Below are positions 40,538 to 58,764 of a stretch of 64,000 nucleotides of DNA, in pieces. This DNA comes from an uncultured Ruminococcus sp. (GTDB lineage Bacteria > Bacillota > Clostridia > Oscillospirales > Ruminococcaceae): contig CADCFQ010000011.1 of assembly GCA_902800795.1 (NCBI GenBank), positions 1,154 to 65,153 of the forward strand, given 5' to 3'. Every line of letters starts with the position of its first letter. Within the stretch, counting starts at the first letter, position 1. The notes under the pieces were generated by a model. It saw only the letters and a list, made by a program, of their open reading frames with translations. It searched no databases and was not told where the DNA came from. The translations under genes and the position numbers were made by a program.

Positions 40538-40540
40538 CAC

Positions 40541-40578
40541 AAAAAACACCTTAGCATTCAAGCTAAGGTGTTTTCTTT
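40541..40578. terminator. bidirectional Rho-independent terminator
   Basis: Hairpin AACACCTTAGC-attcaa-GCTAAGGTGTT flanked by an A6 run and a T-run. Confidence 0.85.
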
Positions 40579-40594
40579 ATATCAAAATATGATA

Positions 40595-41551
40595 TTACTT
40601 GCTTCTCTTCTTGCTCACAGCAACGCCTGCGGCTGCAACTGCAAGGATGCCCATAGCTGCTGCTGCACCTGTGCCGGGGTTGGTGGTGGAAGCTGTGCTT
40701 GTAGCCTTGGAGCTGGAGTCAGCCTTTGAGCTGTCAGCGGCGGAGCTTGTGTCTGCTGTGCTCTCGGCCTCGGAAGACTCGTCTGCCTGGCTCTCAGCCT
40801 CGCTCTCGGAAGTGCTCTCGCTCTCGGAAGTGCTCTCGCTCTCGGACTCACTCTCGCTCTCGCTCTCTTCCGGAGCACCGAGAGTGAATGTAGCGTTGTC
40901 ATTAACGCCGATGACCTGATAGCTGCCGACAATAGCAGTAACTACTACGCCGTATTCACCGGGCTCAGTGGGGAACTCGGAGCTGTTATAGCTGCCGCCG
41001 TCATTGCTGACGAACTCAACTGTGTAGTTATTCTCTGCGGGGATCTCCTCGCCGTCGAAAACAACAGTAACCGTCTGCTCGTCGGAGTTTACCTGAACGT
41101 CGCAGTCGTTAAGGTCTGTTCTCCAGTCCTCGATCTGGTCGATGTGCCAAAGATCATCTGCTGCAACATATCTTACTTTGAACAGGTTGCCTTCGCTTGG
41201 CTCAAAGATAGCGCCGTCGCCGTTTATTTGATCTACGCAGCGGAATGCACCGTCTTCATCGATATAGAAGGACAGTACACCGCCCCAGATTGATCCGGGA
41301 CCCTCTGTCCATGGATTATCAGGCTGTTCACTAAAAACTGCTTTATAATAAGCTACATAGGTGTCACTGTCAAATCTCAGCTCCTGATCTGTGCCGTCTG
41401 TTTTGATATTATCTCCGGGAGCAACGAGAACAACGCCGTCTGCGATCTCGGGAGAATCCTTGTCGAAGCTGTCAGCGCTTGCAGAGATAGCAGTGCCGAA
41501 AGCCAGTGTCAGTGCTACAGCAGAAGCTGTCATTATTTTTGTGATCTTCAT
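40595..41551 (-). CDS. secreted cell-surface protein with C-terminal sortase-type sorting signal (NPGTG)
   Basis: Start moved to ATG 41551 (MKITKIMTASAVALTLAFGTAISASA signal peptide, GGAGG RBS). The Ser/Glu/Thr-rich linker is followed by TNPGTG, a hydrophobic stretch and KKRSK. Confidence 0.75.
   Translation of the reverse strand: MKITKIMTASAVALTLAFGTAISASADSFDKDSPEIADGVVLVAPGDNIKTDGTDQELRFDSDTYVAYYKAVFSEQPDNPWTEGPGSIWGGVLSFYIDEDGAFRCVDQINGDGAIFEPSEGNLFKVRYVAADDLWHIDQIEDWRTDLNDCDVQVNSDEQTVTVVFDGEEIPAENNYTVEFVSNDGGSYNSSEFPTEPGEYGVVVTAIVGSYQVIGVNDNATFTLGAPEESESESESESESTSESESTSESEAESQADESSEAESTADTSSAADSSKADSSSKATSTASTTNPGTGAAAAMGILAVAAAGVAVSKKRSK
40801..40854 (-). repeat. in-frame 18-nt tandem repeat inside the surface-protein linker
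   Basis: CGCTCTCGGAAGTGCTCT occurs twice exactly and a third time diverged. It encodes the (E/S/T)-rich low-complexity linker. Confidence 0.7.
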
Positions 41552-41604
41552 AGTATTTTCCTCCGTTTCAGATAAAGCATATAGTCTTATACCTATATGA
41601 AAAT

Positions 41605-41633
41605 ATAATATCACATTCTCATCACATTGTCAA
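41605..41633 (-). promoter_or_regulatory. sigma-A type promoter of the surface-protein gene
   Basis: Minus strand TTGACA (41628-41633), 17-nt spacer, TATTAT (41605-41610). Confidence 0.6.
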
Positions 41634-42682: not shown

Positions 42683-43456
42683 TTATTCTTTCACTTTTTC
42701 TCTGTACTGCGAGGGCGTGAGGCCTGTTCTCTGCTTGAAGCGGTGAAGAAAACAGGTGGTGTTGTCATAGCCGCACAGCCTGGCGATCTCGTATACAGGC
42801 AGGGCAGTGCTCCCGAGATAAAACTGTGCCGTCGTTATCCTTGCGCTCAGAAGGTCGTCATAACAGCTAAGGCCGAACTCTTTTTTATAGATCTGCTGAA
42901 AATGTGACGGCGAGATATTGAGTCTTGCCGCCATTTCCTCCACCGAGCTAAACGCCGCAGGAGAAGCGTATATCTCAGCCCTCAGCGCCTCAAGCTCGGC
43001 GGCTCTGCTGTCGGAAAACCTTCTTCTGTTGCCGCTTGGCGCCTCCGAGAGCTTCAGCAGGACCATTCTTATCAGCATGGAGATATATTCATCCCTGTTT
43101 CGTGAATCCGAGACGTTCTCCCGGCTGAGAAGCCGCAGGAGCTCCTCTGCCTGGGTCATATTGTCGGGCACAAGGAGCCTGTCGAACACGATGCCTGCCC
43201 TGTCCTCTTCGCCGTCAATATCAAAGTGAAGATAGTGGTTCTCATAGCTGTCGCACACCGAGCCGTAAAGCTGGGGGGTGTCTTTGTAAAAGATAACTGC
43301 GCTGTCCGCCGCAGCAGTGACCCTGCCGCTTTCAAGCTCCAGAAAAGCATCGGTCTTGAAAATGATAAGCAGACAGTCCCCCGAGCCCTTTGGCCTGTCG
43401 ATGATAAAGTCACCCGAGTGACAGGTGTTAAGCCCCATAGCGTGAAGTCTGAACAT
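42683..43456 (-). CDS. AraC-family transcriptional regulator
   Basis: Start moved to ATG 43456 (AAGGAG RBS). N-terminal cupin-like sensor and a C-terminal double HTH (SVEEMAARLNISPSHFQQIYKKEFG ... VYEIARLCGYDNTTCFLHRFKQRTGLTPSQYR). Confidence 0.9.
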   Translation of the reverse strand: MFRLHAMGLNTCHSGDFIIDRPKGSGDCLLIIFKTDAFLELESGRVTAAADSAVIFYKDTPQLYGSVCDSYENHYLHFDIDGEEDRAGIVFDRLLVPDNMTQAEELLRLLSRENVSDSRNRDEYISMLIRMVLLKLSEAPSGNRRRFSDSRAAELEALRAEIYASPAAFSSVEEMAARLNISPSHFQQIYKKEFGLSCYDDLLSARITTAQFYLGSTALPVYEIARLCGYDNTTCFLHRFKQRTGLTPSQYREKVKE

Positions 43457-43566
43457 AAGTAATTCTCCTTTCATCATAGGATAAGTCACTATAAAAGTAT
43501 TATAAAGCATTGAAAAATCTTTGTCAATATGCTATGCTGTTTTTTAAGAAAGAGAGGTCGTTATTT

Positions 43567-45045
43567 ATGAAAAACATCAGTATGCTCATAAACGCAAATG
43601 ACAAGCTGGGACACATCAACAAGGAGATCTACGGACACTTTTCCGAGCATTTGGGAAGGTGCATCTACGGCGGTATCTTTGTCGGTGAGGACAGCGATAT
43701 CGAAAACGTCCACGGCATCAGAAAGGACGTAATAGACGCATTTAAAAACATCAGGATGCCTGTTCTGCGCTGGCCCGGTGGGTGCTTTGCAGACGAGTAT
43801 CACTGGAAGGACGCTATCGGCAAAAAGGAGGAGCGCAAGAAGCTTGTGAACCTTAGCTGGGGCGGTGTGACCGAGGACAACAGCTTTGGCACACACGAGT
43901 TTTTCGAGCTTTGCGAGCTGGTCGGCTGTGAGCCTTACCTTGCTGCGAATGTCGGTTCGGGAACTGTCAGAGAGCTTGTTGAGTGGATAGAATATGTAAC
44001 CTCGCCTGCCGTATCCCCGATGGCGGACGAAAGACGCAGAAACGGCCGTGAAGAGCCCTGGCATTTAAAGTATCTCGGAATTGGAAACGAGAACTGGGGC
44101 TGCGGCGGAAATATGACGCCCGAATACTATGCCGATCTTTACAAGCAGTATTCCACCTTTTGCAGAGACCACGGCGACAACCACCTTTACAAGATAGCCT
44201 GCGGTCCCAGCGGCAATGATTTCAACTGGACAGACGTTATGATGAGAAAGCTCGTAAATTACGGCACCGGCTGTGCAAGCGGCCTGTCGCTCCACTTCTA
44301 TTCGATCCCCGATTGGAACAACAAGGGCACAGCCTGCGAGTTTTCCGACGAGGATTACTATGAGCTGCTCAACATTACAAATTATACGGACAAGCTCATC
44401 AGCACCCACAGCGGCATAATGGACCGCTATGACCCCGAGTGTAAGATAGGCCTCATCGTTGACGAGTGGGGCACCTGGTATGATGTGGAGGAGGGGACGA
44501 ACCCTGCATTCCTTTACCAGCAGAACACTATGCGTGACGCTATCGTTGCGGCTATCTCCCTTAATACCTTCAACCGCCACTCCAAGCGTGTTAAAATGGC
44601 TAACCTTGCCCAGGCTGTCAATGTTCTCCAGGCGCTTATCCTCACCGAGGGCAGGCGTATGATAAAGACGCCGACCTATCACGTTTTTGACCTGTTCAAG
44701 AACCACCAGGAGGGCGACTGCGTTTACTGTCACAGCGAGAACTTCAATATGGCCGAGGGCAAGAACACACCGGCGCTCACGAGCTCCGCTTCCGTCAAGG
44801 ACGGCGTTCTCACGCTTACCGCTGCCAACTGCTCGATAGAGGATGATATCGAGATAAGCTGCAAGCTTGCAGGCTTTGAGGGCAGGGAGGTCAGCGCACG
44901 GATACTTAACGAAGACCTGCGTGCCTTCAATGATTTTGACACCCCCGACACCGTAAAGATAGCCGAACACTTTGCAAAGCTTGACGGCGACACCCTCACC
45001 TTTACGCTCCCCAAGTGCTCGGTAGCAGAGATAACGGTGAAATGA
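43567..45045 (+). CDS. alpha-L-arabinofuranosidase (GH51)
   Basis: Start moved to ATG 43567 (AGAGAGG RBS). [46 protein letters not shown] (acid/base E) and IVDEWGTW (nucleophile E) are typical of GH51 AbfA. Divergent from the AraC regulator. Confidence 0.9.
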
Positions 45046-45070
45046 CCTTTTTTATTTACTTAAACCCCCA

Positions 45071-45113
45071 AGAAAAGAACGGTATGCCAGAAAACATACC
45101 GTTCTTTTTGTTT
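45071..45113. terminator. bidirectional Rho-independent terminator between the GH51 gene and the NRPS gene
   Basis: Hairpin AAGAACGGTATG-ccagaaaa-CATACCGTTCTT with an A-run 5' and a T-run 3'. Confidence 0.85.
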
Positions 45114-48100
45114 TATTCTTCGTCGTCCTCAAAGAAGCTAAGGGTCATAAGTGCATTTATAGCGGTGTTAAGATAAGCGGTGTCGGTCATCGGCCACTTG
45201 AAGCCAAGGCGGTAAAGCGCCTTTGTGGTGAATGAATTGTCATAGCCTATCATAAACTCGATAGTGTTCTTATCGGACACCTGATAAGCGATAAGCGGAG
45301 AAACTATCGAGCTCTTCTTCTCGTCCGCCATGGCCTCGCTGAACTTCCGGCGGAACTCATCGTCTGTCACAGTCTCAACAGGGATGCCTGCCTCGTTCAT
45401 AGCCTGGATAACGTCGCCTATCTCGATCCTGTGGCTGTTGGTCGCATGGAAGACCGTGAAGCGCTTGTCTGTTCTGGAAAGCGATACCACAGCCTCGGCC
45501 ACCTTGTCGATAGGCGAGAACTCGACCTGCTGGTCAAGAGCCGCCACCGAGATAGCTCCCAGCGCCGCATAGGCTCTGAGCGTCCTCATAAAGCTGTTGG
45601 TGACAAAGTTTATCTGGAACTCGCCGTCGCTGTATCTGCTCATAAGATTGCCGACACGGATTATCTTTGCGTCAAGCCCTCTTTCTGCGGCAGCCTCCAG
45701 CATTGCTTTCTCTGCCTTGAACTTGGTGTGCGTATACTTGTTATCAAGGTTCTGTCCGAAGAACAGCTCGTTCTCGTGGATCACCTTCTCGGCGGGTATG
45801 CTGTTGTTGACACTTGTTCCTGCAATGCTTATAGTGGATATCTGGACAAGTCTTCTGCCTGTCTTTACACAAAGCTCGATAAGGTTTTCCACACCCTGCC
45901 TGTTTATCCTGTCTAGCGTGTCGTCCTGTGCAAAATGCTTGACGCAGGCCGCACAGTTTATGACAGTTCCGAAGTCCAGCTCCTCCAGCGCCATAACACC
46001 GCTAAGGTCGGTTATGTCGCCCTTGACAACTTTGATGCGGCTTCCGAAAAGGTCCTTCATCGGGTTCTCGAAGTAGTACATCAGAAGCAGTCTCAGTCTT
46101 TCTTCTTCCGAGCAGCTGCTTCCTCTTATCAGGCAGTAAACGGTCTTGTCGGTGGTGTCCAGCAGACACTTGAGAACGTGTATCCCCAGATAGCCGGTGG
46201 CGCCTGTGAGAAGGATATCTCCCGTGTCAAAGTCCGTCCTTATCTCTTCAACGAACTGTGCTGTGTTGTGTGCCAGCGCATCGTTTTGGGTGCTCTTATC
46301 GTCCTGTGCTGCGGTGTGGCTTTCTGCCGGAGCGGTTGATTTGATATATTCCTCCATCGACTCAACGGTAGGATAGTCAAACACATCCTTGAAAGCTATC
46401 GGCAGGCTTGCCGCCATAGCCTTTATAGCTATCTTTGAAGCCGACAGCGAGGTGCCGCCCAGCTCAAAGAAGTTCTCGTTTATGCCTATCTGCTGGTTGC
46501 CCAGAGCATAGGAGAATATCTCGCAGAGCGTTTTCTGGAGTTCGTTCTTCGGCGGTATCATCTCACGCTTTTCGTCAAAGCCCTCGGGCTTCGGCAGGCT
46601 CTTCTTATCCACCTTGCCGTTTTTGGTCAGGGGTATAGCATCCAGCTGGATGAACACCGACGGCACCATGTATTTAGCAAGCTTTTTCGAGATATGTGCC
46701 TTGAGCCTTTCCACATCCACCTTCACATCCGCTGTGAAATATGCACAGAGATACTGTCCCTTGCCTTCGTCGTCCCTGACGATAACAACGCTTCGGTTCA
46801 GCGACGGGAAGGTGTTCATAACGTTCTCGATCTCGTCCAGCTCTATCCTGAGTCCCCTCAGCTTGACCTGGTTGTCCATCCTTCCCATAAAGATGATATT
46901 TCCGTCCTCGGCTATCCTTGCAAGGTCGCCGACACGGTAAGCTTTCTTTCCTTTGTAGGTGATATACTTTTCCTTGTTAAGCTTCTCGTTTGCCACATAG
47001 CCGCGTCCCACACCCTCACCGATAATGGTCAGTTCGCCGGGAACATCGACAGGCATCTCGTTGTCATACTTATCCAGCATAACTATCTTGGTGTTGCAAA
47101 GGGCCTTGCCTATGGTTATCCTGCTTGTGGGCAGATAAGCCGTTGTGCAGGCAACGGTGGCTTCGGTGGGGCCGTAGCCGTTATAGAGCTTAGCGGTTAT
47201 GCCTGCGTTCCTTATCTTCTCATAAAGCGGTACAGGAAAGCTCTCGGCGCCAAGCTCAATGGCGTTTAGCTGCCTAAGAGCGCTCACTGCCTGCGGGATG
47301 TCCAGGATGTTGTTCATATAGGACGGTGTGCAGACCATAGCTTCAACACCGTTTTTCTTCATCATCTCGGCCAGCGCCACAGGCGAGTTTATCTCGTCCT
47401 CGCTCGCCATAGCGATAGTGTGTCCGTGATAGAGCGTCAGCGTTTCTTCCAGCACCGACACATCAAAGGTCAGCGCCGCCAGCGCCAGCATCACCTGGCA
47501 GTTATCGACCATACAGGTACACTGAACGTTCACCGGAACATGGTGGACAAAGTTTACCAGCGAATGGTGCTCTATCATAGCGCCCTTGGGGTTGCCGGTG
47601 GAGCCGGAGGTATAGAGACAGTAGCAAAGGTTATCGGGCTTAACATCGGTCTCGGGCTCGCTGGTGTCATCACAAAGGGCACACTGCTCCATAGTTATCA
47701 CTTTTATGTTTGCCGATCTGAAAAGCTCGGCTCTCTCCTTTGCTATCGCATCGGTGGTAACTAAACGCTTGGCACTGGAGTTTTCAAGGATGTATCTTAC
47801 TCTGTCGTCGGGATAATCCGGGGCCATAGGCATAAAGGCGGAGCCAGCCTTCATGATACCCTCACGGGCAGCATAGGCATAAGCCGTCCTCGGCATCATA
47901 ACGCCTATCATCTCGTCTGTCTCACAGCCGTCGTTTATCAGCGTATGAGCAACCCTGTTGGCTTCAATGTTCAGCTCTCTGTAGCTGAGCCTTGTATCTC
48001 CCGAGATAACAGCCGTGGTGTCCGGGTGGAGCCTTACCTGCTCCTCAAAGAGCTTGTTGGCCGTCGTGTGGGGCAGCTCGTGCTCGGTGGCATTGAACTG

Positions 48101-51100
48101 CTCGATAATGGCTCTCTGCCTGTCACTCATGATGCTCACATCACGAAGCTTCTTTTTGAGCGTCAGCTCCTTTGCCGCAGTTATAATACACTCGGTGAAA
48201 CGGCGCATAAAGCCCTCGCTGTACATATCGCTCCTGAATTCAACATCGAACACGGCCTTGCCGCCTGTGATGTAAAGGCACACCGAAACAGGCGCCTTAG
48301 CGTCGCTCAGGTCAAGCATCATCATCTCTGCCGGCTCGCCGCCTATGCTCTCGACGAACATATTTCCGCCCTGATAAACGAACATTATATCCGCAGGCAC
48401 GGACAGCTCTCTTGATATCTCAGCAAAGGAGTAGATATCGTTGTCCATGGAGCGTAGGAGCTGTTCGCCTGTCTTTGTTATAAAGTCGCTGACAGCTGTG
48501 TCTCCGCCGAGCTCACAGTAAACGGGCAGGGTCTTTACAAGCATAGTTATGCTCCTTGCAAGTCTGCTGTCGCTCCTGCCGTTGTAGATAGTGGTATATA
48601 CGGCTTCTTCCTTATAGCTGTACTTTCCAAGCACGAAAGCAAAGGCCGCATTGAAGAAAGCATTCTGGGTGGTACCCAGCTGCCTGCAAAAATCTCCTAT
48701 GCTCTCAAGGTCAAGGTCTGACTCCATACGGAAGTGTCCGCTCTTTGGTTCTTCGCCGTTTTCGTCTCCTGACGGCATAAGCTCGGTGTCGGCGCCTTCA
48801 AATATCTCCTTGAAATAAGCCTTCGCCTTTTCATAGCCCTCGCCGCTGCGTGCCTTCTGCTCGTCAAGCGCCGCCTCAAAGCCCGAATAGCTCTCGGGGG
48901 TCAGCTTCTCGCCGGCATAGGCCTTGTTTATGTCCTCCATCAAAACCTTGCCGCTCTCGCCGTCGCTGATGATGTGGTGAGTTTCAAGAAAGAGATAGTT
49001 TGCATCATCTGTTTCAAATATCTTCGCTCTGAAAAGCTCGCCGTCGATAAGCTCGAATGGAACAGAGATCTGCTCCGGCAGCTTTTCGGCTCTTATGACT
49101 TCGACTTCAAAAGGCGCATCGTCCTGTCTTCTGGCTCTTATGTCGCCCTCGTCATTCAAAAACAGCGTGGTCTTAAGATATGGGTGAGCGTCCGCTGCCG
49201 CTTCAACAGCGGCCTTGAGCTTTTCAAGGTCAATCTTGTCGGAGAGCCTGAACAGGAAGGGTATGTTATAAACTGTGGAGCCAGGCTTTGCCGCGCACTC
49301 TGCAAAGATACCGCTCTGCGTAAAGGTGATAGGATAGTCCGCAAGCTTCTCATAAGCGCTTTCGGCCTTGCAGTCGGAGAACAGCTTTTCAAGCTCCTCG
49401 ACGGTCTTGTGCGTTCTCAGGTCCTTACTGTTTACAGGCACGCCGAACTCATTTGAGAGCAGGACATTGAGCTTTATCGAGCCTATGGAAGTTAGGCCTG
49501 CCTCAAAGATATCTGTGGTTATGCCAAAGTCATTGTTTCCGATAGCCTTTGCGACACAGTCAAAGATGCGCTTTTGCATCTCGTTTTGGACAGGCACTAT
49601 CTCGGCGGCCTTTTTCTCGGGAACGGGAAGAGCACGCTTGTTGACCTTCTGGTTCTGGTTGAGGGGTATGCTGTCTATCTGCATCATAACAGCAGGCACC
49701 ATGTAAGCAGGCTTTGTCTCCATGATATGCTCTGCGAGCCTGTCGGTGTCTATCTTCTCATCGGATACAAGGTATGCCGCAATGAACTTGCCTCCTGCCG
49801 GGTCATCAAAGGCCTGGACGGTAGCGTCCTTTATCCCGCCAAAGGTCCTGATAACGCCCTCGACCTCGCTCAGCTCTATCCTGAAGCCTCTTATCTTCAC
49901 CTGACCGTCGGCTCTTCCGACGATATCGAGCCTGCCGTCATCAAGAAAACGCACGATATCTCCCGTGCGGTAAGCTCTCTCATAGCCGTCCTCATCGGTA
50001 AAGGGGTTTCTGATAAACACCTTCTCTGTCTGTTCAGGGCGGTTAAGATATCCTCTGCCCACCTGCTCGCCGGCAATTATAAGCTCGCCGGGAGCGCCGA
50101 AGGGGACTCTCCTCATCTGCTTGTCAACAACATAGCATTTAAGGTTCTCGTTCACCTTACCGATAGGCACTCTGTCATAGAGCCTGTCAACAACGGTGCT
50201 GTTTGTAAATATCGTACACTCGGTGGGACCGTAGATGTTCAGGAATTCAATGTTCTTCGGCGGCTCAACGGGGACAAGCTTCTCGCCGCCTGTTGTGAGT
50301 ATTAGAGGATTCTTAGCGTCAGCAAACATCTCCGCATACTGTCTGCCCACCTGGGTGGTCATAAAGCCGTGGGTGATGCCGTTTGACTCAAAATAGCTTC
50401 TCAGCGCCAGCAGGTCGAGCCTTATCTCCTCCGGGATGATGTGGAGCTGTCCGCCGCTTGTGAGCATGGGATAGGTGTCCAGCATATGCGCATCAAAGCC
50501 GAAGCTCGCATAGGTCATAGCACGGCTGTTCTCATCAGTGGGGAAGAGGTGCTTATAGAATGCACAGTAAGCGCAAAGATTGCGGTGCTCGAGGATAACG
50601 CCCTTGGGCACGCCGGTGGAGCCCGAGGTATAGAGGATGATGAAAATGTCCTCGGGGTCGGGAACTATATCAAGCTTTTCGCTGTCGGGGAGCGAGGGTA
50701 TCTCATCTGTGAACAGGACATCACCCTCATAGTCTCCCACCTTGTCAAGCAGCGAGCGGTCAGCTATCATGACCTTTGCCGAGGTGTCCTTGACCATGAA
50801 GCTGAGTCTCTCCGGCGGATAGGACGCATCAAGGGGCTGATAGCCTGCGCCTGCCTTCAGAACGCCCAGGGCGGCGATAGTCATGTATTCGCATCTTGGT
50901 ATGATAATAGGTACGATATCGCCCTTTTTGACGCCCCTTCTCACAAGCTCCGCCGCTATGTTTTCTGACAGCCTGTCCACCTCACGGTAGGTAAACCTCT
51001 TGCTTGAAAACACAACGCAGATGTTGTCGGGGAATTTTTCGGCGCTTCTTCTGAAAAGCGTTACCATATCGGTGCGCTCATAGTCAAAGGCGTTGTCGTT

Positions 51101-52348
51101 GAACTTGTCGAGCTGCTGTCTCTGCCTGTCGCAGAGCATATCTATCTCTCCGAAGGTCTCAGCATTTATCATAGCGCCAAGTACCTTGTCGAAGCTTTCG
51201 AGCATATCATAAACAAGAGCATCGTTATACTGTGACAGGTCATAAAGGGCGTGAGCGGAAAAGCTGTTGCCGTGTCTCCTTACTGTCAGCTCAAAAACGT
51301 TCTTCGGGTCACGGCTGTTGTGAAGCTCAAACTCAGCCTCTGCGCCGCAGAATTCAAACCTGTTGAAAAGGTCTCCCTGATAGCCGAACAGCACCGAGGG
51401 AGTAACGCCTGTCTCCGAGCAGAGGTCGGCATAGGAGTAAAGGCTGTTCTGACGGCAGAGGGTGGTCTGCCTGTCAAGGGTGGCGAGCGTGTCGCCTATC
51501 TTTGTGCTGTCTTTTATCTCTGCAAGCACAGGCAGAGTCTTTACAAACATACCCACGGTGTCCGAAAGGCGCTCATCACGGCCGTTGAACACATTCGAGA
51601 ATATCACCTGTTCGCTTCCGGAAAAGCCAGAGAGCAGATAAGCAAAGGCTGTGTTCATAACGGTGCTGAGGCGCACACCCCACTTTTTGGCAAGGCTCTT
51701 GAGCTCGTCCGAGCCGACGCTCTTTATCTCATAGGCAAGCTCCTGCGCTCCTCGGCTGCGCTCATTCTTGTCGGTGTAAAAGGCTGTGTCGCCGCTTGCG
51801 TCCCCAAACTCGGAAAGATACAACTGCTTCTGTCTTTCAAACTCCTCTGTCTGTGACATCTCCTGCTCATAGACCGCAAAGTCATTTGCGGTGAAGCTTT
51901 CCGCTTCAAGAGCCTCGCCGTTATACGCCCTGTTGATATCCCTGAAGAAGGGGGCAGCACTGGAGCCGTCAAAGATGATATGGTGTATGTCGACAAACAA
52001 GAAGTTATCCTCCGCAGTCCTGATGATACAGCAGCGGATAAGCTCATCGTTATGCAGATCGAACACCCTGACAAACTCGTATGGGTCAAAAACATCACGC
52101 TCATAAACAGGGATATCAAGCTTAAACTCACGCTGATATTTATAGATATCTCCGTTCTCATCCGCAGCAAAGCCGGTCTTGAGATAAGCGTGGGCATCCA
52201 CAGCAGCCCTGACCGCCCCTGTCAGCCTGTCAGGCTCTGTGCTCTTATGAAGCTTTATGGTCAGCGGCAGGTTATAGGCCGTATCCTGGGTGGATGTCTG
52301 CTCGATATAAATGCCGTACTCGGTTTTTGAAAGCGGATATCTTTTCAT
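45113..52348 (-). CDS. two-module non-ribosomal peptide synthetase with terminal thioester reductase (C-A-T-C-A-T-R)
   Basis: About 2411 aa from ATG 52348 (GAGGTG RBS). C1 has HHIIFDGSS (about 51104-52348). A1 has LYTSGSTGVPKG, YRTGD and GRADGQVKIRG (about 49604-51061). T1 has FEAGLTSIGS (about 49379-49591). C2 has HHIISDGES (about 48119-49351). A2 has LYTSGSTGNPKG, YRVGD and GRMDNQVKLRG (about 46574-48076). T2 has FFELGGTSLS (about 46349-46561). R has LLTGATGYLG and YTHTK (about 45116-46231). Confidence 0.93.
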   Translation of the reverse strand: MKRYPLSKTEYGIYIEQTSTQDTAYNLPLTIKLHKSTEPDRLTGAVRAAVDAHAYLKTGFAADENGDIYKYQREFKLDIPVYERDVFDPYEFVRVFDLHNDELIRCCIIRTAEDNFLFVDIHHIIFDGSSAAPFFRDINRAYNGEALEAESFTANDFAVYEQEMSQTEEFERQKQLYLSEFGDASGDTAFYTDKNERSRGAQELAYEIKSVGSDELKSLAKKWGVRLSTVMNTAFAYLLSGFSGSEQVIFSNVFNGRDERLSDTVGMFVKTLPVLAEIKDSTKIGDTLATLDRQTTLCRQNSLYSYADLCSETGVTPSVLFGYQGDLFNRFEFCGAEAEFELHNSRDPKNVFELTVRRHGNSFSAHALYDLSQYNDALVYDMLESFDKVLGAMINAETFGEIDMLCDRQRQQLDKFNDNAFDYERTDMVTLFRRSAEKFPDNICVVFSSKRFTYREVDRLSENIAAELVRRGVKKGDIVPIIIPRCEYMTIAALGVLKAGAGYQPLDASYPPERLSFMVKDTSAKVMIADRSLLDKVGDYEGDVLFTDEIPSLPDSEKLDIVPDPEDIFIILYTSGSTGVPKGVILEHRNLCAYCAFYKHLFPTDENSRAMTYASFGFDAHMLDTYPMLTSGGQLHIIPEEIRLDLLALRSYFESNGITHGFMTTQVGRQYAEMFADAKNPLILTTGGEKLVPVEPPKNIEFLNIYGPTECTIFTNSTVVDRLYDRVPIGKVNENLKCYVVDKQMRRVPFGAPGELIIAGEQVGRGYLNRPEQTEKVFIRNPFTDEDGYERAYRTGDIVRFLDDGRLDIVGRADGQVKIRGFRIELSEVEGVIRTFGGIKDATVQAFDDPAGGKFIAAYLVSDEKIDTDRLAEHIMETKPAYMVPAVMMQIDSIPLNQNQKVNKRALPVPEKKAAEIVPVQNEMQKRIFDCVAKAIGNNDFGITTDIFEAGLTSIGSIKLNVLLSNEFGVPVNSKDLRTHKTVEELEKLFSDCKAESAYEKLADYPITFTQSGIFAECAAKPGSTVYNIPFLFRLSDKIDLEKLKAAVEAAADAHPYLKTTLFLNDEGDIRARRQDDAPFEVEVIRAEKLPEQISVPFELIDGELFRAKIFETDDANYLFLETHHIISDGESGKVLMEDINKAYAGEKLTPESYSGFEAALDEQKARSGEGYEKAKAYFKEIFEGADTELMPSGDENGEEPKSGHFRMESDLDLESIGDFCRQLGTTQNAFFNAAFAFVLGKYSYKEEAVYTTIYNGRSDSRLARSITMLVKTLPVYCELGGDTAVSDFITKTGEQLLRSMDNDIYSFAEISRELSVPADIMFVYQGGNMFVESIGGEPAEMMMLDLSDAKAPVSVCLYITGGKAVFDVEFRSDMYSEGFMRRFTECIITAAKELTLKKKLRDVSIMSDRQRAIIEQFNATEHELPHTTANKLFEEQVRLHPDTTAVISGDTRLSYRELNIEANRVAHTLINDGCETDEMIGVMMPRTAYAYAAREGIMKAGSAFMPMAPDYPDDRVRYILENSSAKRLVTTDAIAKERAELFRSANIKVITMEQCALCDDTSEPETDVKPDNLCYCLYTSGSTGNPKGAMIEHHSLVNFVHHVPVNVQCTCMVDNCQVMLALAALTFDVSVLEETLTLYHGHTIAMASEDEINSPVALAEMMKKNGVEAMVCTPSYMNNILDIPQAVSALRQLNAIELGAESFPVPLYEKIRNAGITAKLYNGYGPTEATVACTTAYLPTSRITIGKALCNTKIVMLDKYDNEMPVDVPGELTIIGEGVGRGYVANEKLNKEKYITYKGKKAYRVGDLARIAEDGNIIFMGRMDNQVKLRGLRIELDEIENVMNTFPSLNRSVVIVRDDEGKGQYLCAYFTADVKVDVERLKAHISKKLAKYMVPSVFIQLDAIPLTKNGKVDKKSLPKPEGFDEKREMIPPKNELQKTLCEIFSYALGNQQIGINENFFELGGTSLSASKIAIKAMAASLPIAFKDVFDYPTVESMEEYIKSTAPAESHTAAQDDKSTQNDALAHNTAQFVEEIRTDFDTGDILLTGATGYLGIHVLKCLLDTTDKTVYCLIRGSSCSEEERLRLLLMYYFENPMKDLFGSRIKVVKGDITDLSGVMALEELDFGTVINCAACVKHFAQDDTLDRINRQGVENLIELCVKTGRRLVQISTISIAGTSVNNSIPAEKVIHENELFFGQNLDNKYTHTKFKAEKAMLEAAAERGLDAKIIRVGNLMSRYSDGEFQINFVTNSFMRTLRAYAALGAISVAALDQQVEFSPIDKVAEAVVSLSRTDKRFTVFHATNSHRIEIGDVIQAMNEAGIPVETVTDDEFRRKFSEAMADEKKSSIVSPLIAYQVSDKNTIEFMIGYDNSFTTKALYRLGFKWPMTDTAYLNTAINALMTLSFFEDDEE

Positions 52349-52411
52349 TTTTATCACCTCATAAAGGAAGCTTTTATTCTCCGCCGGCTGTGCCGGGTCA
52401 TTACATCTATC

Positions 52412-52440
52412 ATTATAACACAATTATTAAATGAATGCAA
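52412..52440 (-). promoter_or_regulatory. sigma-A type promoter of the NRPS gene
   Basis: Minus strand TTGCAT (52435-52440), 17-nt spacer, TATAAT (52412-52417). Confidence 0.6.
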
Positions 52441-52541
52441 CAGTTTTATTAAATTTGTGCAGATTATTTTATGCAAATTAACTGATTTGGGCTTCCTTAT
52501 CAGCAGATCAGGAGCTGTCAGGATTTTTGAGCGATTTTCAC

Positions 52542-52570
52542 TTGACAAGGCGGGCGATATGTGATAAAAT
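52542..52570 (+). promoter_or_regulatory. sigma-A type promoter of tRNA-Leu
   Basis: TTGACA (52542-52547), 17-nt spacer, TAAAAT (52565-52570). The tRNA starts 10 nt downstream. Confidence 0.7.
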
Positions 52571-52579
52571 TAACAATAT

Positions 52580-52660
52580 GCGGGTATGGCGGAATTGGCA
52601 GACGCGATAGATTTAGGTTCTATTGGCAACACCGTGCAGGTTCAAGTCCTGTTACCCGCA
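52580..52660 (+). tRNA. tRNA-Leu (anticodon UAG)
   Basis: Cloverleaf by hand: acceptor GCGGGTA/TACCCGC plus discriminator A, anticodon stem ATAGA/TCTAT with loop TTTAGGT, long variable arm, and T-arm GCAGG-TTCAAGT-CCTGT. No encoded CCA. Confidence 0.9.
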
Positions 52661-52672
52661 CTGAAGTTTTAG

Positions 52673-52712
52673 ACTCTCAAATGACGTATTTACGTTGTTT
52701 GGGAGTTTTTTG
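52673..52712 (+). terminator. Rho-independent terminator after tRNA-Leu
   Basis: Hairpin ACTCTCAAAtgACGTA-ttt-TACGTtgTTTGGGAGT followed by a T6 run. Its 3' arm is part of the 19-nt direct repeat at 52696-52714. Confidence 0.75.
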
Positions 52713-52733
52713 TTGATGTGTGCTATATAAAGA

Positions 52734-52768
52734 ACCCCTATTCCTGCCTGATAACAGGGATAGGGGAT
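52734..52768 (-). terminator. Rho-independent terminator of the amino-sugar cassette
   Basis: Minus-strand hairpin ATCCCCTAT-ccctgttatcaggcagga-ATAGGGGTT followed by CTTTATAT. Confidence 0.65.
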
Positions 52769-52809
52769 CGTCTTTATCCGGTATTCTTTTCAGCAGCTGT
52801 AGAACTTGT

Positions 52810-53814
52810 TTACTGCTTCTGAGACCACAGCTCGTCAAAGCGTTTGAGCTCTTGTTCTTTCTTGTAGTCTTTAAGATAATCTAAAAACCTGTACTGCGGT
52901 TCATAGCCTAGCTCGTTTCTGGCGTTCTGTATATCCATAACGAAGCTGACAAAAGAATCCTTCTCGGGTCTTTCAATTATGCGCACCTTTTCAGGGCAAG
53001 GAGAGAACACTTTTATATATCCCTCGATCTGTTCTCTGAGAGTAGTCCTCACGCCTGTGCCTGCGTTATATGTTCCGCCATCAATATCGGCTGTCAGTGC
53101 CTTTTTCATCATCTGACATAGATCCTTGACATATAGGATGTCCTTGAAAGCATCAGGATCTCCCCAGAGCTCAATATCCTCTCCGTTTGCTGCTTTGTCT
53201 ATCATACGGCGGTAACCTATAGGCTTTTCGATGCCGTCAACAAAATAGCTCTTCTGAGGAGCGTACATATAAACATTAGGAAGCCTGAACACGAAATCCT
53301 TTACCCCGTATTCCTCCTTGTAAAACCGCATGGAGTCAGCCACCATCGCCTTTGTTACAGAATAAAAAGCATGATCCCCGCTATATATCAGTTTTCTTGG
53401 CAGTCCTGGGGACAGTACCTGTGTTTTGCCCCAGTATCCGGCCTGTTCGGCCCAGGTCTGGGTATAAAGCACACGGTCGGCTCCGCACTTTCTTGCATAT
53501 TCCATTATCCTTATACTGCCGCTTATATTTGTATCTATATAGGCAAAGGGATCAAAACCGCTGAAATATGCCGGCAGAAGTCCGGTAAGGTTCACTGCGG
53601 CAAAAACACCATCAAAAGGAAGCTTATCAAAGTCATCGGCATTTCGTACATCCAGCCGGATATATCTTAGAGGGTATTTATCAAAATGATCCGTCTTTCT
53701 CCTTCCAACGGCAATGATCTCATAATCAGAATTACTGAGTTCATTATAAAGGCAGTCGGTTAGGTAGGCACCTATGTAACCTGTCGCACCGAAAATCACA
53801 ATCTTTTTCATCAA
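52810..53814 (-). CDS. NAD-dependent epimerase/dehydratase-family SDR (sugar-nucleotide modifying)
   Basis: 334 aa. Rossmann motif IVIFGATGYIGAY and catalytic YSVTK (YxxxK). Overlaps the upstream gene by 4 nt (operon). Confidence 0.85.
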   Translation of the reverse strand: MMKKIVIFGATGYIGAYLTDCLYNELSNSDYEIIAVGRRKTDHFDKYPLRYIRLDVRNADDFDKLPFDGVFAAVNLTGLLPAYFSGFDPFAYIDTNISGSIRIMEYARKCGADRVLYTQTWAEQAGYWGKTQVLSPGLPRKLIYSGDHAFYSVTKAMVADSMRFYKEEYGVKDFVFRLPNVYMYAPQKSYFVDGIEKPIGYRRMIDKAANGEDIELWGDPDAFKDILYVKDLCQMMKKALTADIDGGTYNAGTGVRTTLREQIEGYIKVFSPCPEKVRIIERPEKDSFVSFVMDIQNARNELGYEPQYRFLDYLKDYKKEQELKRFDELWSQKQ

Positions 53815-54947
53815 AACTCCTTATCAAAGAATTCTAAAATCTTAGCAATCACTTTGTCTGAATCACTGTCCGAAATACCATAGAACATCGGCAGCCTGAC
53901 AAGTCTCTCGCTCTCTTTTGTAGTATACCGATCTTCGCCTGCAAATCTTCCGTATTTTAAACCGGCAGGTGCTGAATGAAGCGGAACATAGTGGAACACT
54001 GTCTGTATACCGTTATCCTTCATAAAAGAGATAAACTCTGTCCTGCTCTCAAGATCGGGCAGCTTGATATAAAACATATGAGCATTATGTGTGCATTCTC
54101 CGGGTATCACCGGAAGCTCAGTCAGACCGGCTTCGGCCAGCGGCTTCAGCGCCTGATAATACTTGTTCCAGGAAGCAAGTCTGTTATTGTTTATCTGATC
54201 AGCTACTTCCAGCTGTGCCCACAAATATGCGGCATTCAGATCTGACGGCAAATAGCTGTCTCCAAAATCTACCCAGGAGTATTTATCGACCTGACCCCGG
54301 AAAAACTTAGATCTGTTAGTTCCTTTCTCACGCAGTATCTCGGCTTTTTCAATGTATTCTTCTTTGTTGATAACAATAGCGCCGCCTTCGCCCATAGAAT
54401 AATTCTTAGTCTCGTGGAAAGAATAGCATCCAAAATCACCTATTGTTCCAAGAGCCTTGCCTTTATAGGAACTCATAACACCTTGAGCTGCATCTTCAAC
54501 GACCATAAGATCATAGCGTTTGGCAATGTCCATTATCGTATCCATCTCACAGGAAACGCCGGCATAATGAACAGGGATTATCGCCTTGGTTTTATCTGTG
54601 ATAGCTGCTTCTATCTTTTTTTCATCGATATTCATAGTATCAGGGCGAATATCAACAAAAACCAGTTTTGCACCAACAAGCACAGCAGCATTTGCGGTGC
54701 TTGAAAAAGTATAGCTCGGAAGAATTACCTCGTCGCCCGGTTTTATCCCGCAAAGCATCATTGCCATATCAAGAGCAGTTGAACCGCTTGTTGTAAGCAT
54801 TACCTTTTTAGCGTTAAAACGCTTTTCCATCCAGGCATCGCACTGTTTGGTAAACTTACCGTCTCCGCATATCTTGTGGGATTCGATCGCTTGCTTCATA
54901 TAATCAAACTCTGTACCTACAAACGGAGCAGCATTGAACGTAATCAT
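53811..54947 (-). CDS. wecE: DegT/DnrJ/EryC1-family PLP aminotransferase, WecE-like (dTDP-4-amino-4,6-dideoxyhexose transaminase)
   Basis: 378 aa. The N-terminus FNAAPFVGTEFDYMKQAIESHKICGDGKFTKQC, LPSYTFSSTANA, FHETKNYSMGEGG (PLP Lys) and REKGTNRSKFFRGQVDKYSWVD follow the WecE/RffA pattern closely as I remember it. Confidence 0.85.
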   Translation of the reverse strand: MITFNAAPFVGTEFDYMKQAIESHKICGDGKFTKQCDAWMEKRFNAKKVMLTTSGSTALDMAMMLCGIKPGDEVILPSYTFSSTANAAVLVGAKLVFVDIRPDTMNIDEKKIEAAITDKTKAIIPVHYAGVSCEMDTIMDIAKRYDLMVVEDAAQGVMSSYKGKALGTIGDFGCYSFHETKNYSMGEGGAIVINKEEYIEKAEILREKGTNRSKFFRGQVDKYSWVDFGDSYLPSDLNAAYLWAQLEVADQINNNRLASWNKYYQALKPLAEAGLTELPVIPGECTHNAHMFYIKLPDLESRTEFISFMKDNGIQTVFHYVPLHSAPAGLKYGRFAGEDRYTTKESERLVRLPMFYGISDSDSDKVIAKILEFFDKEF

Positions 54948-55015
54948 ATTATATCTCCTATAATCAGGTTTTTGTGCATTTTCTAGTATTGTGATCCATC
55001 AAAGCAGTTTTTTTT

Positions 55016-55044
55016 AGTATACAATGGATACAGTAAAATGTCAA
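55016..55044 (-). promoter_or_regulatory. sigma-A type promoter of the wecE-like operon
   Basis: Minus strand TTGACA (55039-55044), 17-nt spacer, TATACT (55016-55021). Confidence 0.6.
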
Positions 55045-55170
55045 GCAAACTTGAATGAGTATTCGTTGTAAAAAAGTATCTTTTCTTTTTGATCGTCATC
55101 ACCTGCGACCGACATCCGGCGCCTGAAGCTGATCGATAAAATATGCGAAACCGGCAGACATGAAAGTTCC

Positions 55171-55256
55171 AGGCTCTGTTGGCAGCACCGTCTTTATCTA
55201 CATTGATCTTATAAGCTTTCAGACAGCGTAAATACGCTGTTTGGGAGTTTTTTGTT
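55171..55256 (+). repeat. decayed partial duplicate of tRNA-Leu (variable-arm segment) plus its terminator
   Basis: AGGCTCTGTTGGCAGCACCGTC (55171-55192) matches AGGTTCTATTGGCAACACCGTG (52615-52636) at 18 of 22 positions. The downstream hairpin CTTTCAGACAGCGTA-aa-TACGCTGTTTGGGAG plus T-run parallels the tRNA-Leu terminator. The exact 19-mer TGTTTGGGAGTTTTTTGTT is shared (55238-55256 and 52696-52714). Confidence 0.7.
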
Positions 55257-55345
55257 TTTATTGATGAGGGGCTTTGTCCGTTATGCCTTTGTGAATCTTG
55301 TTTTTCATCAGAGTAGTTTCACGAAAAATAATCCTCTTCCCCCCC

Positions 55346-55374
55346 TTGACAAGCTCGGGAAAAAGTGTTATATT
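55346..55374 (+). promoter_or_regulatory. sigma-A type promoter of the DUF3793-flavodoxin-DUF2325 operon
   Basis: TTGACA (55346-55351), 17-nt spacer ending in TGT, TATATT (55369-55374). A C7 run immediately precedes the -35 element. Confidence 0.65.
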
Positions 55375-55380
55375 ATATCT

Positions 55381-55431
55381 GTTAGTTATAACTAACTATT
55401 AATTTTGATACACGGTTAGCTATAACTAACC
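55381..55431. promoter_or_regulatory. two palindromic operator-like sites at and after the predicted transcription start
   Basis: GTTAGTTATAACTAAC (55381-55396) is a perfect 16-bp palindrome. GGTTAGCTATAACTAACC (55414-55431) has perfect arms. The centres are 34 bp apart. Confidence 0.6.
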
Positions 55432-55454
55432 AACGAACAAAACGGAGTGAGACT

Positions 55455-56018
55455 ATGTCGGCTGTTGAGATTTCAAGATTTGAAAAGGTCCTTGCTTTCC
55501 ATGCGGCGCCTACGCTTATGGGAATAAAGTGCGGAAGTCTGCTTTCGCTTTCCGGCGAGGAGTTCGACCTTTGTGCTTTGAGCAGACTTCTCGGCAGCCA
55601 GCTCGCTGACAGAGGTCTCAGAATAAGGCTCATACCTGTGGGCGAGAAGAGAAAGCTCATATATGTTTACAACGAGGAGCTGCTCAAAAGGAAGCAGAAC
55701 TGTATGGCGGTAAGGCAGTTTCTCAAGAAGTACGGCTACTCTCCCACAGCTTCGGCGGAGCAGTGGCTGGACAGGCTTTGTGAGCGGCTCTCGGAAGACG
55801 GTTTCCCTCACGAGATAGGCATATTCCTCGATTATCCGCTGGAGGATATCAAGGGGTTCATCGAAAACTGCGGACAGCACTGCAAGCTTTGCGGAGTATG
55901 GAAGGTCTACGGGGATGTCGAGCGTGCAAGGCGGATATTTGCGAAGTATTATCGCTGCCGCACAGAGCTTTGTTCGCAGCTTGAAAAGGGGAGAAGGCTC
56001 GCCGCCTGTGTGGCGTAG
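55455..56018 (+). CDS. DUF3793-family protein
   Basis: 187 aa. N-terminus FEKVLAFHAAPTLMGIKCGSLLSL and the Cys-containing block FIENCGQHCKLCGVWKVY, as I recall for DUF3793. GGAG RBS. Confidence 0.7.
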   Translation: MSAVEISRFEKVLAFHAAPTLMGIKCGSLLSLSGEEFDLCALSRLLGSQLADRGLRIRLIPVGEKRKLIYVYNEELLKRKQNCMAVRQFLKKYGYSPTASAEQWLDRLCERLSEDGFPHEIGIFLDYPLEDIKGFIENCGQHCKLCGVWKVYGDVERARRIFAKYYRCRTELCSQLEKGRRLAACVA

Positions 56019-56053
56019 CTTCTTATAGATAAAACTAATCTGGAGGTACATTT

Positions 56054-56458
56054 ATGAAAACAGCAGTTATTTATTGGAGCGCAACAGGAAACACCGAGGC
56101 TCTTGCCAGGGCAGCGGCAGAGGGTGCCGGTGTTACGGCACAGACAGTATCGGAGTTTTCGGACGACGTGAGCAGCTATGATGCGCTTGTGCTCGGCTGC
56201 CCCGCTATGGGAGCCGAGGTCCTTGAAGAGGATGAGTTCGAGCCGTTCTTCACAGGTATCGAGGGAAGTCTTTCGGGAAAGAAAGTTCTTCTCTTCGGTT
56301 CTTACGGCTGGGGCGACGGTGAGTGGATGAGAAACTGGCAGGAGCGTGCTGCCGCAGCAGGCGCAGAGCTTGTTGGCGGCGAGGGCTTTATTGTCAATGA
56401 AGCGCCCTCTGATGATGAGCTTGCAAAGATCAGGGCTCTGGCACAGACGCTTGCATAA
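56054..56458 (+). CDS. short-chain flavodoxin
   Basis: 134 aa. FMN phosphate loop IYWSATGNTE and the later GSYGWGDGEWM block. Confidence 0.9.
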   Translation: MKTAVIYWSATGNTEALARAAAEGAGVTAQTVSEFSDDVSSYDALVLGCPAMGAEVLEEDEFEPFFTGIEGSLSGKKVLLFGSYGWGDGEWMRNWQERAAAAGAELVGGEGFIVNEAPSDDELAKIRALAQTLA

Positions 56459-56515
56459 ACCAGACTAAGGCTTATCCCGAACAGGTGTCCGGGCCTTATA
56501 GAAAAGGAGACAAAA

Positions 56516-56800
56516 ATGAGTGTAGTGATCGTAGGCGGTAATGACCGCATGGCAGGAAGATACAAGGATATATGTACCGAGAACGGATGTAAGTCCAAGG
56601 TCTTCACCCAGATGCCGGCGGACTTTGAGAACAAGATCGGTTCTCCCGACCTGGTGGTGGTCTTTACGGGGACCTGTTCCCATAAAATGCTTGGCAGTGT
56701 AAAGCGCCATACCGTAAGATCGGGCACACCAGTAAAACACCTTCACAGTTCAAGCGCCAGCGCTCTGAAGGCTCTGCTCTCGGAGTATGTCCCGGGATGA
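56516..56800 (+). CDS. DUF2325-family small protein
   Basis: 94 aa. VVIVGGNDRM...DLVVVFTGTCSHKM pattern, as I recall for DUF2325. AAGGAG RBS. Confidence 0.65.
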   Translation: MSVVIVGGNDRMAGRYKDICTENGCKSKVFTQMPADFENKIGSPDLVVVFTGTCSHKMLGSVKRHTVRSGTPVKHLHSSSASALKALLSEYVPG

Positions 56801-56830
56801 CAGGGATCCCAAGCGCTTGCGACCCGGCTG

Positions 56831-56867
56831 AACAAACATCCCCCGGCTCTGCCGGGGGATGTTTGTT
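56831..56867. terminator. bidirectional Rho-independent terminator
   Basis: Hairpin AACAAACATCCCCCGG-ctctg-CCGGGGGATGTTTGTT. Confidence 0.85.
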
Positions 56868-56903
56868 TATGATCACATGATCTGTTTTATGTGCCTTCAC
56901 TGA

Positions 56904-57935: not shown

Positions 57936-58059
57936 TTTTACTCTCCATTGATCCCGATCAACTCTTATGTCTCATCTGACCTCATACATCGTCACTGCCG
58001 TATAACGCACGCTCTTTGTCAAAGGTTTGTTTTTGATCTGTTTCATAGATCTTGCACCT

Positions 58060-58455: not shown

Positions 58456-58735
58456 CCTTATCACCTCGCATGGATTATGATGGTTTTCTTCGCTTGAAGT
58501 GTATTCGCTTATATACCCGATCAGTATTTGATACATTATAGCATATCGGGGATAAATAGTCAATCAATGCTAAACAGACAGGCTGCATCTTTATAGCTTT
58601 ATGCGGAGTGTATAACTGTACATATTATTGTACAGTTTGCGATCGGAAACAGATATATCCCGGGGCGCTGCTGCCGTAGAAAGCCGGCAGATCAGGGGAA
58701 CAGAAAAAGAACTTGATAAAAACGAGAGAAAACGC

Positions 58736-58764
58736 TTGACAAACGTCCGTGAAAGTGCTATAAT
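58736..58764 (+). promoter_or_regulatory. consensus sigma-A promoter of tRNA-Pro
   Basis: TTGACA (58736-58741), 17-nt spacer, TATAAT (58759-58764). Confidence 0.8.

Follow-up and report, generated by a model that had tools for sequence, protein, structure and literature searches.

What does a large nonribosomal peptide synthetase (NRPS) gene make when it stands in its stretch of genome without helper genes, and is it still at work? The question is raised by a 7.2-kb open reading frame (ORF) in a 64-kb stretch of contig CADCFQ010000011.1, here called the window (64,000 nt in full), from an uncultured Ruminococcus sp. Within the window, the NRPS is a one-gene cluster. By full-length homology, the enzyme belongs to a large and already described family of gut-Clostridia peptide-aldehyde synthetases, and on its motifs and relatives both this assignment and the reductive release of the product are well founded. 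We put at roughly 0.62 the probability that the gene encodes a family NRPS making an N-acylated dipeptide aldehyde of the protease-inhibitor type.

The protein combines condensation (C), adenylation (A), carrier (T), and reductase (R) domains in the following order (window coordinates, with residue numbers in brackets).

45113..52348, minus strand: NRPS coding sequence, 2411 aa, order C-A-T-C-A-T-R (Pfam; ATG backed by conserved N termini of homologues)
51044..52348, minus strand: C1, N-terminal condensation domain of predicted starter (acyl-accepting) type (aa 1-435), with HHIIFDG at aa 122-128, nt 51965-51985
49613..51016, minus strand: A1, adenylation domain (aa 445-912), code DALFTGIIFK, predicted substrate aliphatic hydrophobic (Leu/Ile/Val/Met type)
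49364..49591, minus strand: T1, carrier domain (aa 920-995), FEAGLTSIG, with the phosphopantetheine-attachment residue Ser954 at nt 49487-49489
48089..49342, minus strand: C2, internal peptide-bond-forming condensation domain (aa 1003-1420), with HHIISDG at aa 1124-1130, nt 48959-48979
46583..48061, minus strand: A2, adenylation domain (aa 1430-1922), lineage-specific code DVLVEGGVAK from the A-domain alignment
46334..46555, minus strand: T2, carrier domain (aa 1932-2005), FFELGGTSL, with Ser1967 at nt 46448-46450
45116..46231, minus strand: R, terminal NAD(P)H thioester reductase (aa 2040-2411), with TGATGYLG at nt 46184-46207, Thr2172, and Tyr2205/Lys2209 at nt 45722-45736

Pfam models detected two Condensation, two AMP-binding, two AMP-binding_C, and two PP-binding domains and one NAD_binding_4/Epimerase domain (NAD_binding_4 at residues 2047-2287), all far above their cut-offs. 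Both A domains carry motifs A3, A5, A7, A8, and A10, and the R domain carries TGATGYLG at residue 2048, QISTIS at 2169, and YTHTK at 2205-2209. In an alignment of 15 members sharing 40-63% identity, H122, H123, D127, S954, T2172, and K2209 were invariant, while Y2205 and S1967 were kept in at least 90% of the sequences. The initial annotation of this locus, made by reading the DNA without database searches, had described a complete C-A-T-C-A-T-R NRPS in one ORF, and this description stands: two full modules were found with every catalytic motif intact, including Ser954 of T1 and Thr2172, Tyr2205, and Lys2209 of the R domain. The same annotation had called the GLTSIG of T1 unusual. However, the family consensus at this site is FxAGLTSIGAIKL, with G951 and S954 invariant, and the motif marks no defect. 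Taken together, these features describe an NRPS that is complete and apparently active, with a reductive-release domain.

A protein search with the NRPS returned 1824 matches at E<=1e-20. The family statistics given here refer to the best 120 of these matches plus the query (121 sequences), whose domain orders were assigned with hidden Markov models (HMMs) built from the family. Every one of the 120 best matches contained C, A, T, and R domains. The exact order C-A-T-C-A-T-R was found in 48 of the 121 sequences, and an extra N-terminal A-T loading pair was found in 38; the remaining relatives have three or four modules, and a few begin directly with A-T. Matches fell into tiers of 98% identity (same species), 86% (a related lineage, P0002), and 63% (P0009), followed by a large block at 50-58% with lengths of 2405-2422 aa; longer relatives measure ~2970-3000, 3440, and 4000 aa. 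Identities of 40-63% over 100% of the length were obtained to proteins named as Clostridia, Clostridiales, Ruminococcus, and Lachnospiraceae metagenome-assembled genomes (MAGs) and to human-gut metagenome loci, and an R-domain scan of metagenomes added 46 family loci from human-gut, rumen-like, and fermenter samples. This full-length homology to hundreds of gut and rumen Clostridia NRPSs with the same architecture bears out the earlier placement of the gene in the gut-Clostridia C-A-T-C-A-T-R class. The "human-gut" part of that placement was not borne out: the closest named proteins are from Ruminococcus sp. MAGs. The 90% cluster of the NRPS protein holds NCBI proteins labelled "MAG: ... [Ruminococcus sp.]" (e.g., MBQ6633870.1), housekeeping neighbours carry the same label, and the name of one contig bearing the 98% variant (XIEF21-1_SAMN15829912), taken by itself, suggests a ruminant gastrointestinal MAG study as its source. 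Among NCBIfam models, AusA (NF047350) scored best, at 1114.8 bits against an equivalog cut-off of 2500, and MxcG gave a strong partial match. Membership of AusA, MxcG, SolG, or EntF was rejected, all scores being far below the NCBIfam cut-offs.

The case for N-acylation lies in where C1-type domains occur across the family. Each C domain in the 121 sequences was classed by the better of its scores against a family C1 HMM and a C2 HMM, and the domain preceding it was recorded. Of 104 C1-type domains, 66 were N-terminal, 38 followed an A domain without Asp235, and none followed an amino-acid A domain (with Asp235). The corresponding counts for the 158 C2-type domains were 0, 7, and 151. HHxxxD was kept in 103 of the 104 C1-type domains. 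In the loading A domains, FS or FA replaces the FD of motif A4, from which we infer that these domains bind no alpha-amino group and presumably activate a carboxylic acid. Because C1-type domains are found only at the N terminus or after an Asp235-less loading A domain, and never after an amino-acid A domain, C1 is most simply read as an acyl-starter C domain that transfers an acyl group onto the first amino acid. Relatives of the P0041/P0043 type start with A-T and have no C1, and appear simply to be built for a free N terminus. Acylation of the amino group would block cyclization to a pyrazinone, which is thus expected to form only if acylation is skipped; an N-acyl tail also stabilizes the aldehyde (PMC8210680).

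The terminal thioester reductase proposed in the initial annotation was confirmed by a TGATGYLG site and a Thr/Tyr/Lys triad that are conserved in the family. Its best solved relatives are the peptidyl carrier protein-reductase (PCP-R) structure of Mru_0351 (6VTJ, E=7e-75) and then the AusA R domain (4F6C, E=7e-39). The Mru_0351 match to T2-R spans 368 residues and has the same triad, and AusA-R is the aldehyde-producing reference (PMC8024701). A Dieckmann-cyclase type R* domain was considered and rejected, since the catalytic Tyr2205 is present in YTHTK.

These elements suggest the following assembly line. A phosphopantetheinyl transferase (PPTase) encoded elsewhere in the genome would prime Ser954 and Ser1967, and A1 would place an aliphatic hydrophobic amino acid on T1. 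The starter-type C1 would then move an acyl group, supplied in trans as acyl-CoA or acyl-ACP, onto the T1-bound amino group. A2 would place the second amino acid on T2, and C2 would make the peptide bond. Finally, the R domain, of the short-chain dehydrogenase/reductase (SDR) type, would free the N-acyl dipeptide by two-electron NAD(P)H reduction to a C-terminal aldehyde, which would serve as a covalent, reversible protease-inhibitor warhead. Published products of the family include N-octanoyl-Met-Phe-H and ruminopeptin, an N-acylated Leu-Glu aldehyde (PMC8518294).

Several points weigh against an N-acylated aldehyde. C1 is not demonstrably a member of the starter-C clade known from classical lipopeptide synthetases: its best solved relatives are ordinary LCL domains, those of TycC and BacC, which also lead for C2 (to which C1 is 28% identical), and no solved starter C domain is close. 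Most of the family products that Guo et al. (2017) obtained by heterologous expression were reportedly un-acylated pyrazinones. The 64-kb window has no PPTase, exporter, or acyl-donor gene. Neighbours of the NRPS in relatives include a 99-aa STAS protein, a MatE exporter fused to HATPase_c_2 (an anti-sigma-type kinase), a SpoIIE phosphatase, and, at some loci, an ACPS-family PPTase. At least one of STAS, MatE-kinase, and SpoIIE adjoins the NRPS in 32 of the 46 metagenome family loci (~70%), a PPTase is present in 8, and 14 have none; the window likewise has none. The 86% orthologue (L092, 7259-8032 plus 8001-14495) is split by a 1-nt insertion inside C1, an extra G in a 7-G run at the equivalent of nt 667 of the window gene, and the split product was seen on two contigs. 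The extent of reduction by R domains is not readable from sequence or structure, and two-electron and four-electron reductases are indistinguishable by sequence alone (PMC8024701).

The alternative that survives best is that C1 is bypassed or inactive, in which case a free-amine dipeptide aldehyde would cyclize spontaneously to a dihydropyrazinone and oxidize to a pyrazinone, as with AusA. The initial annotation had taken a pyrazinone as the default product. Many gut dipeptide aldehydes do cyclize spontaneously and have been isolated as pyrazinones (PMC8210680, PMC12327764), AusA heads the NCBIfam models, the neighbourhood offers no acyl-activating gene, and C1 is not close to any solved starter domain. 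However, AusA itself has no N-terminal C domain. The default ignored a C1 whose HHxxxD motif is intact and family-invariant and which is under purifying selection, with a ratio of nonsynonymous to synonymous substitution rates (dN/dS) of 0.09-0.18. C1-type domains, moreover, are never found after an amino-acid A domain, stand after an Asp235-less loading A-T in 38 relatives, and are missing from relatives with a free N terminus, which begin with A-T (P0041, P0043). We therefore regard a pyrazinone as an unlikely principal product. Alternatively, the same assembly line could end in a four-electron reduction by the R domain, yielding an N-acyl dipeptide alcohol without a protease-reactive warhead. 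NRPS R domains sharing this fold produce alcohols in MxaA, in an M. tuberculosis R domain, and in the myxochelin system, MxcG is a strong partial NCBIfam match, and neither sequence nor structure yet discriminates the extent of reduction (PMC8024701). In contrast, the only functionally characterized R domain that is close in sequence is that of the aldehyde-former AusA, and the characterized products of the family are aldehydes (PMC8518294, PMC12327764), which makes alcohol release improbable.

Selection and gene integrity bear on whether the gene functions at all. Whole-gene dN/dS was 0.106 relative to the 86% orthologue (dS 0.82) and 0.083 relative to the 98% orthologue, with every domain below 0.2. 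Values of ~0.1 indicate a functional, selectively maintained gene. The exact protein was found on 10 metagenome contigs with identical synteny, and the 98%-identical protein P0001 was found on 3 further contigs, the ORF being uninterrupted in both sets. The order tRNA-Leu-NRPS-GH51-AraC-M23 is common to the window and the 86% lineage. The 7-G frameshift in the 86% orthologue may be an assembly error or a recent lesion, and the window gene is not affected by it. That the locus is a silent or decaying orphan remnant, deprived of its former exporter, regulator, and PPTase partners and yielding no product in vivo, would fit the lack of every accessory gene that most relatives keep adjacent, the split 86% orthologue, and a weak -35 element, but it is the least probable of the alternatives given dN/dS of ~0.1 over 7.2 kb and in every domain, ORFs intact on 10 and 3 contigs, a frameshift in a homopolymer that may be an assembly error, and 14 of 46 related loci that likewise have no adjacent accessory genes.

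Returning to the N-acylated dipeptide aldehyde, its two amino acids would be set by the adenylation pockets. Specificity codes were read from a MAFFT alignment that combined ~290 A domains with a fragment of GrsA, in which the GrsA control gave the canonical DAWTIAAICK. A1 reads DALFTGIIFK and A2 reads DVLVEGGVAK. The hand-aligned codes of the initial annotation were right at 9 of 10 positions in each domain. The exception is position 278, which is F in A1 (given as T) and V in A2 (given as S). A1 lies within the family consensus DAMFSGxIFK, at ~70% domain identity, and by analogy with the Leu and Met of characterized products we predict that it loads an aliphatic hydrophobic residue. Apart from the window gene, only the 98% and 86% orthologues carry the A2 code; neither the other 118 homologues nor those metagenome-scan loci with readable A-domain codes had it (~175 other members examined). 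The nearest A2 clade, at 68-72% identity, has the code DVLKDGGITK and differs at 4 of 10 pocket residues (K278V, D299E, I330V, and T331A). Lys278 is reminiscent of Asp and Asn codes, and DVLKDGGITK may be the Glu-loading pocket of ruminopeptin-type enzymes. Among the members of this clade are abundant 2421-aa proteins from human-gut Ruminococcus sp. This 2421-aa group may correspond to RupA of R. bromii, but its cluster names give "Ruminococcus sp." only and do not prove identity.

Among the domains, A2 shows the lowest dN/dS (0.05), and the 86% lineage has exactly the same A2 code; the pocket is therefore maintained. Glu299 is set over a wide floor formed by Gly301, Gly322, Val330, and Ala331, and the loss of the cationic Lys278 together with an anionic Glu299 over this small-residue floor would suit a basic or polar substrate but is not evidence for one. 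The hint at a basic substrate that the initial annotation saw in this Glu is thus a guess. A tentative proposal, which we hold to be possible but doubtful, is that A2 has switched to a basic P1 residue (Arg, Lys, or Orn) in place of an acidic one, which would give a leupeptin-like N-acyl-(Leu/Ile/Val)-argininal or -lysinal. If so, the inhibitor repertoire of the family would extend to trypsin-like proteases, and a canonical dimodular NRPS in a fibre-degrading gut Ruminococcus would make a trypsin-like/cysteine-protease inhibitor. P1 specificity, and hence the class of protease targeted, would then be undergoing retuning within the family. To our knowledge, leupeptin is made by routes without a dimodular C-A-T-C-A-T-R enzyme. 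The likeness of leupeptin (N-acyl-Leu-Leu-argininal; PMC10548850) to the window product holds only if A2 loads a basic residue and is purely hypothetical. A full-text literature search for six Stachelhaus codes of the family returned no match.

The closest described systems are the gut-Clostridia dipeptide-aldehyde NRPSs (Guo et al., Cell 2017; via PMC8210680, PMC8518294, PMC10794557), which are likewise single large two-module NRPSs with a terminal reductase from gut Firmicutes. These enzymes produce dipeptide aldehydes, N-acylated in some cases, that inhibit cysteine and serine proteases (PMC8210680, PMC8518294, PMC10794557). The A1 pocket of the window gene is of the hydrophobic type found throughout the homologues retrieved here. 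The differences are the host, here a Ruminococcus sp. MAG possibly from a ruminant gut, and the lineage-only A2 code DVLVEGGVAK. The ruminopeptin synthetase (rup) of Ruminococcus bromii (Schneider and Balskus 2018, via PMC12327764, PMC8518294) is from the same genus, and its product is N-acylated Leu-Glu-H. To the 2421-aa group, a possible counterpart of RupA, the window gene is 53-55% identical, and it is without that group's STAS, MatE-kinase, and SpoIIE neighbours. The aureusimine synthetase AusA/PznA of Staphylococcus aureus is also dimodular with a terminal R domain, which makes a dipeptide aldehyde. However, AusA has the order A-T-C-A-T-R, with no N-terminal C domain, and its free-amine product cyclizes to a pyrazinone, whereas the window NRPS has the extra C1. 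Mru_0351 of Methanobrevibacter ruminantium (6VTJ, 6VTZ; PMC8024701), a rumen organism, provides the closest solved structure to T2-R; it is a multimodular archaeal protein of ~4187 aa, of which only the terminal didomain is comparable with the window NRPS.

The architecture, family, and chemistry of the window gene are already known; its interest lies in the lineage-specific A2 pocket and the loss of accessory genes. Few microbiome natural products have a defined target; the peptide aldehydes of gut Firmicutes do, namely, host and microbial proteases. We know of almost no rumen NRPS whose product has been established. Among the biosynthetic gene clusters of rumen genomes, NRPSs form the largest class, with 5,346 of 14,814 clusters (PMC8241843). 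The window gene would be a clean, single-gene expression target of 7.2 kb, with a P1-determining pocket unlike that of every other family member sampled. The survey also suggests rules for annotating the family, in that C1-type domains would mark N-acylation and most loci carry a STAS, MatE-kinase, or SpoIIE module.

The extent of the gene and its transcription signals were read from the sequence as follows.

52355..52360, minus strand: ribosome-binding site GAGGTG, 7 nt before the ATG
52412..52440, minus strand: putative sigma-70 promoter (function inferred), with -35 TTGCAT (52440-52435), a 17-nt spacer, and a TGn-extended -10 TATAAT (52417-52412)
45072..45109, either strand: bidirectional intrinsic-terminator hairpin of 15 pairs, common to the convergent GH51 and NRPS genes

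As called mechanically, the ORF extends from 45113 to 52423 on the minus strand, and the biological start is the ATG at 52348. This codon was taken as the start because the homologues share a conserved N terminus, with MKRYPLSKTEYGIY aligning with their residue 1, and because GAGGTG lies upstream. The promoter had earlier been called near-consensus. Its TGn-TATAAT -10 element is indeed perfect, but its -35 TTGCAT matches at 3 of 6 positions, which makes that description generous and explains why a consensus promoter scan did not list it. The proposed bidirectional terminator was upheld: the 15-pair hairpin, bordered by an A-run at one end and a T-run at the other, lies between the end of the GH51 gene (45045) and that of the NRPS gene (45113). 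Rfam models run over 44000-59500 detected two tRNAs only, with no riboswitch or leader upstream of the NRPS gene. One of them, tRNA-Leu(tag), is served by a strong promoter-like site of its own (TTGACA-17-TAAAAT with TG) and by a terminator hairpin (window 52542-52708), and its transcription is divergent from the NRPS promoter at a distance of ~100 nt.

The genes closest to the NRPS in the window are listed here.

42683-43510: AraC regulator
43510-45045: GH51 arabinofuranosidase, convergent to the NRPS gene
52580-52661: tRNA-Leu(tag)
52810-53814: SDR epimerase
53811-54947: DegT aminotransferase

Moving outward, the left-hand neighbours are GH51, AraC, and an M23 peptidase, and the right-hand ones are tRNA-Leu(tag), the SDR epimerase, and the DegT aminotransferase. 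A Pfam scan of 40 large window ORFs identified LeuA, GalT, a glycogen-branching enzyme, teichoic-acid/LicD/TagF-type proteins, PurA, ClpP, UppP, FtsK, Cmk-PlsC, IspH-S1, and a penicillin-binding protein. The same 40 ORFs gave no match to a PPTase (PF01648), MbtH, a MATE, ABC, or MFS transporter, a tailoring enzyme, STAS, or SpoIIE, and our own context HMMs for helper genes found none in 35001-62400. This agrees with the earlier description of flanks formed by GH51 and tRNA-Leu, with no PPTase, MbtH, transporter, or tailoring gene. STAS, MatE-HATPase_c_2, and SpoIIE are absent not only from the window but also from the 98% orthologous loci (L001, L004) and the 86% orthologue (L092). The orphan state is a minority condition in the family, not a unique one.

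Two explanations of the isolated position were rejected. A tRNA-targeted genomic island was dismissed because the gene lies on the 5' side of tRNA-Leu, has no adjacent integrase, and at a GC content of 0.52 is in line with the left flank; the tRNA-Leu-NRPS-GH51-AraC-M23 synteny kept in the 86% lineage also rules it out. An in-trans partner NRPS feeding C1 was discounted because no second NRPS gene was found in the window or in the relatives' loci. Beyond tRNA-Leu, L092 differs from the window and carries an ion channel, a recombinase remnant, and an MmeI-type methyltransferase.

The partner-switching set in relatives was seen at L087 7598-19386, L089 886-10576, L090 5399-15648, L091 5698-16950, and L093 18004-20083. 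Its SpoIIE (PP2C) phosphatase carries a HATPase_c_2 domain, and the MATE exporter-kinase fusion suggests that export of the product is coupled to regulation. Unusual arrangements of the synthetases themselves were also observed. In P0072-P0076 (2755-2776 aa; one named Selenomonadaceae), the domain order is C-A-T-C-T-C-A-T-R, with a middle module that has no A domain, so one A domain may load two carrier domains. Both A domains read DVMSDGGISK in 3 of these 5 proteins, and the second differs in P0073 and P0076 (DVMVDGGISK and DIMIDGGISK, respectively). A tandem pair of family NRPS genes, each with a terminal R domain, occupies L131 5111-18347.

Elsewhere in the window, tRNA-Pro(cgg) has as its immediate neighbours a serine recombinase (58834-60459), whose ORF overlaps the 3' end of the tRNA, and a MobA/VirD2-type relaxase (60936-62378); the region 58779-64000 looks like an integrated mobilizable element. 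The 98% orthologous contig L004 has other cargo at the same tRNA-Pro, namely, a type IV secretion system coupling protein and a helix-turn-helix protein. A wall teichoic-acid/polysaccharide gene block at 12647-21062 includes LicD, an IspD/TarI-like cytidylyltransferase, Acyl_transf_3, an SDR epimerase, and two CDP-glycerol glycerophosphotransferase-type proteins of 901 and 377 aa. Two gene fusions lie at 32503-35874, joining a cytidylate kinase to a PlsC-type acyltransferase (458 aa) and IspH (LytB) to ribosomal protein S1 (664 aa). Four ORFs of 144, 339, 394, and 372 aa (window 40103-41614, 23511-24695, and 11434-12552) had no Pfam match, and those of 339 and 144 aa are kept beside the M23 peptidase in orthologous contigs.

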